Source: a virus
Taxonomy: Duplodnaviria; Heunggongvirae; Uroviricota; Caudoviricetes
DNA: 64,000 nucleotides
Virus record (IMG/VR): IMGVR_UViG_2897352509_000007
Strand: one strand, 5' to 3'
Part shown: one piece after another, positions 21,001-24,000 of the stretch
Layout of the letters: each line of letters opens with the position of its first letter
Numbering within the stretch: the stretch's first letter is position 1
Made by a program: the position numbers

Positions 21001-24000
21001 GCCCGTATTGTATGGGCAGAGAAGGCAAAAACATGGTAATTCCGTGTGTTGCCATGATACCTGATTGGCAGAATTGTTGTTTGGTTTTGAGTATATAGTC
21101 AGCGTCTTTTGTTCGGTAATTGCTCTTTCAATTAAAATGCCAGATATGATTTGCTTTTCTTTGTTGTTTAGTTTTTTTGTATATTATTTTTATTGTTTTT
21201 ATATAATTAGTTTTTTATTGTTGTCTTATTAAGGACGGTAAATTCAGGATGGCAGTCTGTAGATAAACGGAGGTTACTTATGCTACATGATCACCTGGCA
21301 GAATGTCTGGAGAAAAAAGGACTGTACCGGAGAGCAGCTGAACGATGGGCAAAAGTGATGGTACAGCTAAGTGATGACCAGAAAAGAAAAGTGGCGGCAC
21401 AGAAACGAGCAGAGTGTTTGCGTAAGGCGCGCCGGACTCCGGTTTCACCGGTGAACCTGACCGAAATAAAACAAGCGGTCAACAGACTACATTCTGAGTT
21501 GGGAATGGGATTTGAAGAGCGGCGGGTATTCCGACGATATAAAGGGACAGGAGAACAGAATACGTCCGGAAACGCGCGGTCAAAAAAATGCTAAAAAATA
21601 TCTGAGAGCGTTATTGCCTGTTACCATAAGAAAAAGCGACTTTAGTGGTCGCTTTTTGTGTCATATATAAGTCGTTTAAGTAAACCTGTCTGAACAGGTT
21701 CTCTGGTCGTGTTTGTCTTTGTTGGGTACAAATTGAGAATATTTTTCATTAATTAATCTTCTTCTGCAGGCTTCAATAACCCACGCTGAAAAATTTCCTG
21801 AACCTTTCAGATCAAGAGCGATGTTAATTTGTTCAATCATCTGGTTTGGAAATCGGATGTTGCGGGTTGTTGTTCTGCGGGTTCTGTTCTTTGATGACAT
21901 AATGTTGCCCCATATTCAGTGTTGCTGATTTGTATTATCTGAAGTTGCTTTTACGTTAATTTGATGCAGATCAATTAATACGATACCTGCGTCATAATTG
22001 ATTATTTGACGTGGTTTGATGGCGTAGATGCACGTTGTGACATGTAGATGATAATTATTATCATTTTGCGGGTCCTTTCCGGCGATCCGACCGGTTACGG
22101 GGCGGCGACCTCGCGGGTTTTCGCTATTTATGAAAATTTTCCGGGGAAAATCATGTCGGTACTTCTCGAACATAACTATTTGTTTTTTCTAATATCGAAT
22201 CCGTAAAGGTCCGACATGAAAACGCCTGAAAAAGTCATTTTCGGGCACTTTCATGTCGGACCCTGTATTTGTTGTGAGACTGTTTCATGAAGGTTAATAA
22301 AAAGAAACTTGCCGAAATTTTCAACGTGGATCCGCGAACGATTGAACGCTGGCAGTCTCAGGGGCTCCCTTGCGTCTCCGGAGGTGGTAAGGGCGTTGAA
22401 TCTGTATTTGATACCGCCACGGCAATTCAGTGGTATGCGCAGAGGGAAGCTGATATCGAAAATGAAAAACTCCGTAAAGAGGTTGAGGATTACAGGGCTG
22501 CCAGCGAGGCAGATCTCCAGCCTGGGACTATTGAGTACGAACGCCATCGACTTACGCGTGCGCAGGCTGACGCCCAGGAGCTGAAGAATGCCAGAGACTC
22601 CGCAGAAGTGGTGGAAACCGCATTCTGTACTTTCGTGCTGTCACGGATCGCAGGTGAAATTGCCAGTATTCTTGACGGGATCCCTCTCTCAGTACAGCGG
22701 CGTTTTCCGGAACTGGAAAACCGACATGTTGATTTCCTGAAACGGGATATTATCAAAGCCATGAACAAAGCAGCCGCGCTGGATGAACTGATACCGGGGT
22801 TGCTGAGTGAATATATCGAACAGTCAGATTGATATTCTGCGGCGTGATGTACGCGCCGGGCTGCGAGCCCTGTTCAGGCCGGAGCCACAGACTGCCGTTG
22901 AATGGGCGGATGCCAGTTACTATCTCCCGAAAGAATCCGCATACCAGGAAGGGCGCTGGGAAACACTACCCTTTCAGCGGGCTATCATGAATGCGATGGG
23001 CAGCGACTACATCCGCGAGGTGAATGTGGTGAAGTCTGCCCGTGTTGGTTATTCAAAAATGCTGCTGGGTGTTTATGCCTACTTCATAGAGCATAAGCAG
23101 CGTAACCCCCTTATCTGGTTGCCGACGGATGGTGATGCCGAGAACTTTATGAAAACCCACGTCGAGCCTACCATCCGCGATATTCCGTCGCTGCTGGCTC
23201 TGGCCCCGTGGTATGGCAAAAAGCACCGGGATAACACGCTCACCATGAAGCGTTTCACCAATGGGCGTGGTTTCTGGTGCCTGGGCGGTAAAGCGGCAAA
23301 AAACTACCGTGAAAAGTCGGTGGATGTGGCGGGTTATGATGAACTTGCTGCCTTTGATGAGGATATTGAACAGGAAGGCTCTCCGACGTTCCTGGGTGAC
23401 AAACGTATTGAAGGCTCGGTCTGGCCAAAGTCCATCCGTGGCTCCACGCCCAAAGTGAGAGGCACCTGTCAGATTGAGCGTGCAGCCAGTGAATCCCCGC
23501 ATTTTATGCGTTTTCATGTTGCCTGCCCGCACTGCGGGGAGGAGCAGTATCTTAAATTTGGCGACAAAGAGACGCCGTTTGGCCTCAAATGGACGCCGGA
23601 TGATCCCTCCAGCGTGTTTTATCTCTGCGAACATAATGCCTGCGTCATCCGCCAACAGGAGCTGGACTTCACTGATGCCCGTTATATCTGCGAAAAGACC
23701 GGGATCTGGACCCGTGATGGCATTCTCTGGTTTTCGTCATCCGGTGAAGAGATTGAGCCGCCGGACAGCGTGACCTTTCACATCTGGACGGCGTACAGCC
23801 CGTTCACCACCTGGGTGCAGATTGTCAAAGACTGGATGAAAACGAAAGGGGATACGGGAAAACGTAAAACCTTCGTGAACACCACGCTCGGTGAGACATG
23901 GGAAGCGAAAATCGGTGAACGTCCGGATGCTGAAGTGATGGCAGAGCGGAAAGAGTATTATTCAGCGCCCGTTCCTGATCGTGTGGCTTACCTGACCGCC

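Follow-up and report, generated by a model that had tools for sequence, protein, structure and literature searches.

A pchB cassette next to a conserved DUF3950 gene between Rz and cos of an O157:H7-type lambdoid prophage

The DNA analysed here is a 64,000-nucleotide stretch (the window) of a caudoviral genome, IMG/VR record IMGVR_UViG_2897352509_000007, and the segment in question is an AT-rich region between its lysis gene Rz and its cohesive-end site cos. An initial annotation had placed in this region a convergent pair of open reading frames (ORFs), one PerC/Pch-like and the other small and ribbon-helix-helix (RHH)-like. Both are present in the ORF list: a plus-strand gene encoding 104 amino acids (21280..21594), whose product is PchB of Escherichia coli O157:H7 Sakai (group 1 Pch/PerC1), and a minus-strand gene encoding 74 amino acids (21676..21900), which belongs to the DUF3950 (YlcI/YnfO) family. 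They converge on a spacer of 81 bp. The AT-rich setting was also as described, with Rz to the left, cosN to the right, and a GC content of 0.34-0.41 over 20850-22200 versus 0.52-0.56 in the Rz and terminase genes. In other O157:H7 genomes with the same DNA, both genes are called by the NCBI annotation pipeline PGAP, one as 'PerC family transcriptional regulator' and the other as 'YlcI/YnfO family protein'. The locus is ordinary and already known, and the function of DUF3950 is the sole remaining thread.

The 104-residue protein scored 148.8 bits on the Pfam PerC family (PF06069; cut-off 22.6, E 5.4e-44), its residues 1-89 aligning with positions 1-89 of the 90-position profile. This match, together with the alignment to Pch proteins, is the opposite of the outcome that the initial annotation named as refuting it (no PerC-family signature), and takes the call beyond mere likeness. 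An alignment with PchA, PchB, and PchC, the group 1 Pch proteins of the Sakai genome, showed the product to be identical to PchB (ECs_2182, prophage Sp11) at 104/104 residues, and to match PchA and PchC at 103/104, the differences being L6V and V58M, respectively. At the nucleotide level, window positions 20700-22400 were identical to Sakai Sp11 and to EC4115 (1701/1701 nt in each case). The pchA, pchB, and pchC genes differ only at nucleotides 16, 172, and 183 (PMC5931665). Having 104 residues and differing only at the known variable positions, the protein belongs on sequence to group 1 Pch (PchA/B/C, PerC1).

That the LEE (locus of enterocyte effacement) is activated by an identical protein has been published, so that the link to virulence regulation suggested in the initial annotation is correct but is established knowledge; pchB and its LEE-activating role are already known. 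PchA, PchB, and PchC each activated a ler::lacZ fusion in E. coli K-12, PchB being the strongest (12,513 vs 1,577 Miller units for the control), and PchD and PchE gave little activation (PMC5931665). Pch activates LEE1 only under silencing by H-NS, StpA, and Hha (or these plus YdgT); it makes H-NS less abundant on LEE1, both in vivo and in vitro in a reconstituted system, and co-activates, with Ler, other LEE promoters and non-LEE effector loci (PMC4764244). The protein of these mechanistic data is PchA, one residue from the protein here (PMC4764244). Exact identity to PchB settles LEE activation; PerC-family membership alone would not, because the PerC-like protein of EcCIMP1 represses LEE (PMC11773190). 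PchB, a small DNA-associated protein, displaces H-NS, StpA, and Hha from the LEE1 promoter, and so switches on ler and, in turn, the whole LEE type III secretion island along with non-LEE effector genes, as published for this protein and for PchA. Among the main switches of the O157:H7 LEE type III secretion system is the pch gene; whether a strain has it, in how many copies, and in which prophage setting has a bearing on virulence, all of which is established. Searches of PDB sequences with both proteins gave no meaningful match. The Pch N-terminus bears a weak resemblance to a TPR-like helical hairpin, and an ANR-family match in NCBIfam was sub-threshold.

The 74-residue protein matched Pfam DUF3950 (PF13132) with 66.6 bits (cut-off 25, E 1.8e-18), the NCBIfam model YlcI_YnfO_N (NF041551) with 34.6 bits (cut-off 30), and the PHROG family phrog_949, of unknown function, with an E-value of 1.7e-31. 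Its conserved core is residues ~9-50; the tail from residue ~46-50 onward is encoded by the DNA cassette that carries pch, and is specific to pch-linked alleles. Comparison of codons 1-48 with those of lambda, Sakai prophage Sp9, and other alleles gave ratios of non-synonymous to synonymous differences per site (pN/pS) of 0.07-0.17, with pS as high as 0.53; this range leaves out the near-identical pair of lambda and locus L067, for which the ratio was 0.57 on three differences. The most divergent allele pairs have 12-17 synonymous versus 4-7 non-synonymous differences. Homologues across the Enterobacterales, with 36-57% identity, retain the hydrophobic pattern K-x-IRFP-xxLIExI...NFSAWVxEAC. 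The DUF3950 ORF is a real gene under strong purifying selection.

Phage lambda (NC_001416) has an unannotated 64-residue homologue at 48109-48303(-), ~200 bp from its right cohesive end, with three differences from the 74-residue protein in the first 49 residues. A 1441-bp query around both ORFs (20850-22290) matched 4623 of 5426 E. coli genomes in some part, and 659 at ≥80% coverage. The Sakai Sp9 allele (ECs_1788) is likewise antisense; it has Rz on one side and, on the other, a non-lambda packaging module with HNH and small-terminase genes. The DUF3950 gene is a backbone gene in lambda and most E. coli lambdoid prophages, including those without pch. In most cosN-containing IMG/VR loci, cosN is 211-219 bp upstream of the DUF3950 ATG, even where the terminase small subunit Nu1 is only 34-47% identical. 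Current Sakai annotation has no coding sequence between ECs_2180 and ECs_2182, so that the Sp11 DUF3950 gene is absent from it. The term 'uncharacterised' given to this ORF in the initial annotation was fair, a full-text literature search on DUF3950, ylcI, and ynfO having returned incidental mentions only; DUF3950, though encoded by lambda, appears to have been studied by nobody. The gene is a cheap target for those who work on lambda or phage satellites.

Lambda-type DUF3950 alleles (~88-94% identical to the query) were also recovered from assemblies bearing the names Streptomyces, Pseudomonas, Flavobacterium, Cohnella, Enterococcus, and others. The contigs concerned (L102-L134, L136, L151, L161) are often ~3.5 kb or ~48.5 kb long, and many of the ENA proteins that count as 'distinct' are frame-shifted forms of the lambda-type allele. 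Such 'homologues' look like lambda control-DNA contamination and sequencing noise. Because of contaminating lambda copies and noisy reads, family diversity is smaller than raw homologue counts indicate.

The pch gene occupies a 'moron' cassette of ~950 bp (20807..21757), which is DNA specific to pch-bearing prophages and lies between Rz and the DUF3950/cos block. Homology of the window to lambda and to ten pch-less lambdoid loci ends at ~20794-20806 in most and at 20596-20648 in three, and restarts at 21753-21766; homology to Sakai Sp9 ends at 20806. The cassette comprises an AT-rich leader, a ribosome-binding site, the pch ORF, a terminator, and the last ~25-28 codons of the minus-strand ORF. 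A 911-bp module query (20830-21740) was found in 672 of the 5426 complete E. coli genomes (≥80% coverage, identity at least ~95%), in 1-5 copies each (median 3). That pch is carried on a defined ~950-bp cassette, one junction of which is inside a conserved backbone gene, is a modest addition to what is known of it.

The leader (20817..21279, plus strand) has 34-40% GC in the composition profile; it presumably contains the pch promoter and is likely to be a target of H-NS, for which it is a candidate. A Shine-Dalgarno sequence, GGAGG, can be read at 21269..21273 (plus strand), 6 nt before the pch ATG. A scan for sigma-70 consensus found no promoter for either gene, neither on the plus strand between Rz and pch nor on the minus strand upstream of the DUF3950 gene, and a literature search for a pch promoter or transcription start gave nothing relevant. 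By eye, a −10-like hexamer, GATAAT, is seen at ~21941-21936. In the block that the window has in common with lambda there is a 13-nt inverted repeat, ATCAATTAATACG / CGTCATAATTGAT, at 21970..22002, which lies 70-100 bp upstream of where the DUF3950 gene starts; that it serves as an operator is speculative. A simple terminator scan gave no terminator-like site on the plus (late-gene) strand between Rz and pch. Since pch is on the late-gene strand with no such site before it, Q-antiterminated late transcription would be expected to run into pch upon prophage induction. In the lysogen, pch would be transcribed from its own promoter. Late read-through would be consistent with the reported increase of group 1 pch mRNA linked to SOS, for which pchC reached significance and pchB showed a non-significant trend (PMC5931665).

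A hairpin resembling a bidirectional intrinsic terminator, AAAAAGCGAC-N7-GTCGCTTTTT, lies between the convergent genes at 21631-21657 and is common to both. In folding, its stem was 11 bp followed by a U-run in plus-strand RNA, and 10 bp followed by a U-run in minus-strand RNA; the simple terminator scan did not detect it. Co-occurrence of the genes was examined in 80 IMG/VR loci. The 74-residue allele was matched in full length in 57 loci (≥92% identity), and pch was convergent with it, 88 bp downstream, in 57/57; one further locus, matching 72/74 residues, also has pch. DUF3950 alleles with other tails were never accompanied by pch (15 loci matching residues 1-65 at 80% identity, and 7 matching residues 1-52 at 96%). 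Comparison with lambda and the pch-less loci puts the right-hand junction of the cassette at ~codons 46-50 of the DUF3950 gene. The tight linkage of pch and DUF3950 arises because the right edge of the cassette is inside the DUF3950 gene, making the tail and pch one piece of DNA. In Sakai Sp4, the match to the window breaks off at the equivalent of 21757, at a copy of IS629 (IS1203), and the DUF3950 gene is truncated next to pchA. This Sp4 breakpoint is at the same place as the junction of the cassette within the DUF3950 gene, and the pchA/lysis segment of Sp4 is inverted relative to cos and terminase (L004 33203-33680, 36697-36977). The pchA gene is one of the three whose deletion defines the pch mutant (PMC4764244).

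The RHH label given to the second ORF is plausible from the predicted topology and the kind of structures that resemble it, no match being statistically significant. AlphaFold, run with a 24-sequence alignment, predicted an extended segment (residues 13-18) followed by helices at 19-32 and 37-55, with a core pLDDT of 72-88 and a disordered C-terminal tail; a trimmed model had the same topology. In a Foldseek search of the PDB with the trimmed model, RHH proteins made up most of the 50 matches listed, with TM-scores up to 0.70 and all E-values ≥0.75; names among these matches were Arc, the NikR N-domain, CopG, ParD, MazE9, HicB, AtaR, PrpA, and KacA. The sequence-based indications were weak, though they agreed with one another. 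A profile search of the PDB gave the CopG-family protein 9kkd_A at an E-value of 0.32. A HicB-like PHROG family was matched by 11 of 24 family members (best E 8e-5) and Arc-like families by three, and Pfam RHH_6 by one (E 0.09). Against P22 Arc, hhalign aligned NIRFP-NQMIEQINIALDLKG with NLRWP-REVLDLVRKVAEENG in the expected register (E 0.012, probability 3.5%); against Mnt the E-value was 0.17. An RHH fold is likely but unproven, and the protein may be an RHH-type dimeric DNA-binding regulator of mobile elements.

Divergent members of the family give some indication of what DUF3950 proteins do. In two of them (P0193 and P0213), DUF3950 is fused to the first ~53 positions of the Terminase_2 profile, which correspond to the DNA-binding segment at the N-terminus of a small terminase, and each of the two Pfam domains scores above its cut-off. 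The fusion genes (L007 4714-5103; L089 5590-6363) are in satellite-like elements in which an integrase gene, a small ORF, and the fusion gene run divergently to a primase operon. In P0213, the fused segment has 53% identity to the small terminase that its own satellite element encodes. The L089 element (CP027459) also has a second, 60-residue DUF3950 paralogue, and its own small-terminase and capsid genes. Two perfect GGTACGTACC palindromes bracket the divergent promoter of this 60-residue paralogue, and ahead of the fusion gene lie three GTTTAACAC repeats and a variant, GTTAACAC. Pfam families were tallied for the two nearest ORFs on each side of the DUF3950 gene in 38 divergent Enterobacterales loci; the recurrent neighbours were AlpA (8), integrase (7), AntA antirepressors (4), and primases (~5-6), and no terminase was among the families listed. 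The family-wide tie is therefore to the regulatory end of satellite-like mobile elements, not to packaging genes, and our best guess, held with moderate to low confidence, is that DUF3950 is a putative small RHH-type transcription regulator of phages and satellites.

Whether the two genes at the Rz-cos boundary form a functional unit, and whether the second is a gene at all, can be judged from the evidence above. The initial annotation spoke of a pair and of an RHH partner, which was not borne out: the genes face each other across a terminator, DUF3950 occurs without pch in lambda, in Sakai Sp9, and in most E. coli genomes, and the cassette junction explains their linkage. We consider it very probable that they are independent genes and physical neighbours only, a pch cassette beside a DUF3950 backbone gene, with co-occurrence reflecting linkage. 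A functional module, in which the RHH-like protein regulates pch by promoter repression or anti-activation and so lets the prophage tune LEE activation, might be argued from gene adjacency, from the 57/57 co-occurrence, and from the last ~25-28 residues of the DUF3950 protein being encoded by the pch cassette; small RHH proteins, moreover, are commonly local regulators. Such a module is nevertheless very unlikely. The genes share neither operon nor promoter, the conserved and presumably DNA-binding core is common to lambda and pch-less prophages, and perC of the plasmid of enteropathogenic E. coli (EPEC) and PerC genes of chromosomal islands are found in other contexts. In Sp4, DUF3950 is truncated beside pchA, and yet pchA is among the deletions that abolish Pch function (PMC4764244). 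The idea that the 74-residue ORF has no function, and that DNA-level constraint near cos or recent prophage spread accounts for its conservation, could draw on the dropping of the Sp11 copy from current Sakai annotation, on the lack of annotation in lambda NC_001416, and on the failure to find a promoter consensus. It is hardly credible in view of the low pN/pS at high pS, of the hydrophobic pattern shared by homologues 36-57% identical across Enterobacterales, and of the matches above cut-off to curated Pfam and NCBIfam models; the spurious-ORF reading was rejected on the pN/pS over codons 1-48.

The main rival to a transcription regulator is a packaging accessory that binds near cos or acts together with the small terminase. 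This would fit the 211-219 bp spacing from cosN to the ATG in most cosN-containing IMG/VR loci, in which Nu1 is 34-100% identical, as well as the position of DUF3950 in Sakai Sp9 and the L089 prophage, where HNH and small-terminase genes of another packaging type adjoin it, and the two Terminase_2 fusions, one with a segment 53% identical to the small terminase of its own element. We nonetheless regard it as quite unlikely, given that the gene is antisense to the late/packaging operon, that the 38 divergent loci list no terminase family and point to the regulatory end instead, and that the GGTACGTACC palindromes around the divergent promoter of the 60-residue paralogue look regulator-like. A tie specifically to lambda-type cos was rejected, the gene being found also beside an HNH and Terminase_2 module and in satellite-like islands with no terminase neighbour. 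A more elaborate form of the regulator reading, in which lambdoid phages and satellites share the regulator and the pch-linked tail gives it a cassette-specific role, seems to us unlikely. Features that would fit a phage-satellite regulator are the constrained RHH-like core, the antisense position at the lysis/packaging boundary with two terminase types, the paralogues at the integrase/AlpA-primase switch region of satellites resembling phage-inducible islands, and the occasional fusion to a small terminase; if it were true, transcription control across cos and phage-satellite cross-talk would be possible roles.

Several observations count against the preferred reading of two independent genes, one of them pchB with its own promoter and late read-through and the other a putative RHH-type regulator. 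The 74-residue allele with its own C-terminal tail occurs with pch in every full-length match, which could reflect a functional coupling of tail and pch, a less parsimonious explanation than linkage. The consensus scan gave no pch promoter, and we infer late-operon read-through into pch from anatomy alone. The monomer model of the DUF3950 protein had a modest pLDDT (68-74) with no strand assigned; such a missing strand is expected of a monomer because the RHH ribbon forms between subunits, but it leaves the strand a presumed one. The RHH-specific matches were all statistically non-significant (Foldseek E ≥0.75, PDB profile 0.32, hhalign 3.5%), and no experiment on any DUF3950 protein was found in the full-text literature search.

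As to the flanks, Rz with embedded Rz1 is at 20349-20816 in the ORF list. On the right are the cosN cohesive-end sequence GGGCGGCGACCT (22100..22111, plus strand), recognized from its sequence and its match to the lambda cos region, and the gene for a Nu1-type terminase small subunit (22287..22832, plus strand; ORF list and RefSeq annotation of identical DNA), which is followed by the large terminase gene. A repeat search found repeats with the motif CATGTCGG (22138-22262) in the stretch 22138-22294 that separates cosN from the start of Nu1; among them is an inverted repeat of 25 nt (22208-22262). These are probably small-terminase binding sites (putative cosB), which we take to be different from the R sites of lambda. 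Short ORFs at 20899-21039, 21065-21232, and 21916-22173, the last overlapping cos, were rejected as genes, having no family match and no RefSeq annotation. An Rfam search of 19000-24000 at a permissive threshold gave chance-level matches only, with no small RNA within 21280-21900; a plant-miRNA match at the palindrome 22203-22267 was rejected as spurious.

The prophage that carries this locus is, by sequence comparison with Sakai, a recombinant with an Sp9-like left arm and an Sp11-like right arm. Window positions 1-20806 (integrase through Rz) are 98.6-99.9% identical to Sakai Sp9, the ompW prophage, which has no pch gene, the match stopping within the last Rz codons; positions 18213-38727 (lysis, pch, cos, head, and tail) are 98.6-98.9% identical to Sp11. 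The 1441 bp around both ORFs are 100% identical to many O157:H7 genomes. Versus O157:H7 EC4115, the first 25 kb of the window are 99.3% identical to a prophage next to ompW, and 32959-64000 are 100% identical. The annotation of this identical EC4115 DNA includes the effector genes nleA (44091-45416, minus), nleH1-2 (47243-48154, plus), nleF (48220-48789, plus), nleG (53396-54043, minus), and espM1 (54227-54817, plus). Similar effector regions are among the loci at which Pch and Ler reduce H-NS binding (PMC4764244); the Pch activator and its probable targets therefore share one element. This EC4115-type strain has the regulator and some of its reported target genes on one recombinant prophage.

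A second lambdoid prophage starts within 58104-64000, with an ompW fragment (58104-58229), an integrase gene (58275-59405, minus), genes for an excisionase, an exonuclease, and DicB, and the DicF RNA (62778-62829, minus); it is a tandem insertion at the ompW site. Elsewhere in the window there are two phage tRNA genes (16481, 16637), downstream of which Rfam places STnc100 (16823-17031, plus, 175 bits) and, adjoining it, the anti-sRNA AgvB (17033-17092, minus), which scored 56.6 bits (gathering score 56). In its early region the prophage has a sok antisense RNA (11702-11851, 103.9 bits in Rfam) of a hok/sok-type toxin-antitoxin locus, and EC4115 has hokD annotated at the corresponding place.

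With known RHH proteins (P22 Arc and Mnt, CopG, the NikR N-domain, and ParD/HicB/MazE), the DUF3950 protein shares similar size, a basic N-terminal arm, and predicted topology, its pattern K-x-IRFP, helix, G/S-x-NFS, helix aligning with the NLRWP...G-RSVNSE of Arc. It differs in giving no significant sequence or structure score, its dimerisation and DNA binding being predicted, and in that no toxin or obvious target gene adjoins it here. A counterpart is the 64-residue ORF of lambda, in the same antisense position ~200 bp from cosN but with unrelated residues from ~50 on. YlcI (prophage DLP12) and YnfO (prophage Qin) of E. coli K-12 are of the same family, a link made by the name of the NCBIfam model only. 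In the slot corresponding to the pch cassette, lambda has bor and two other ORFs. Like pch, bor is a moron gene of benefit to the lysogen in the variable slot between Rz and the DUF3950/cos block; bor, however, runs on the other strand, and its product is an outer-membrane lipoprotein, whereas pch is on the late-gene strand and encodes a regulator.

PchA, PchB, and PchC of Sakai are encoded in the same slot between Rz and cos, with flanking DNA identical over 1.7 kb in the case of Sp11. The order Rz/Rz1, pch, cos, terminase matches that of Sp11 and, as far as pchC, that of Sp14. The copy here differs in being on a prophage integrated beside ompW, as in EC4115, whereas Sakai pchB is in Sp11. 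PerC of the EPEC plasmid pEAF is in the same Pfam family and likewise activates LEE1 (PMC4332760); in a tblastn search, plasmid-borne PerC-family genes were ~46-48% identical over residues 2-88, these plasmids not being confirmed as pEAF. EPEC PerC is encoded by the plasmid-borne per operon, unlike the prophage-borne pch, and is conditionally dispensable, whereas Pch is essential for LEE expression in enterohaemorrhagic E. coli (PMC4764244). PchD, PchE, and those PerC-like proteins that phage-inducible chromosomal islands encode (e.g., EcCIMP1_025) are, like the pch product, small PerC-family proteins encoded on mobile elements, but they do not activate LEE1 or else repress it (PMC5931665; PMC11773190).

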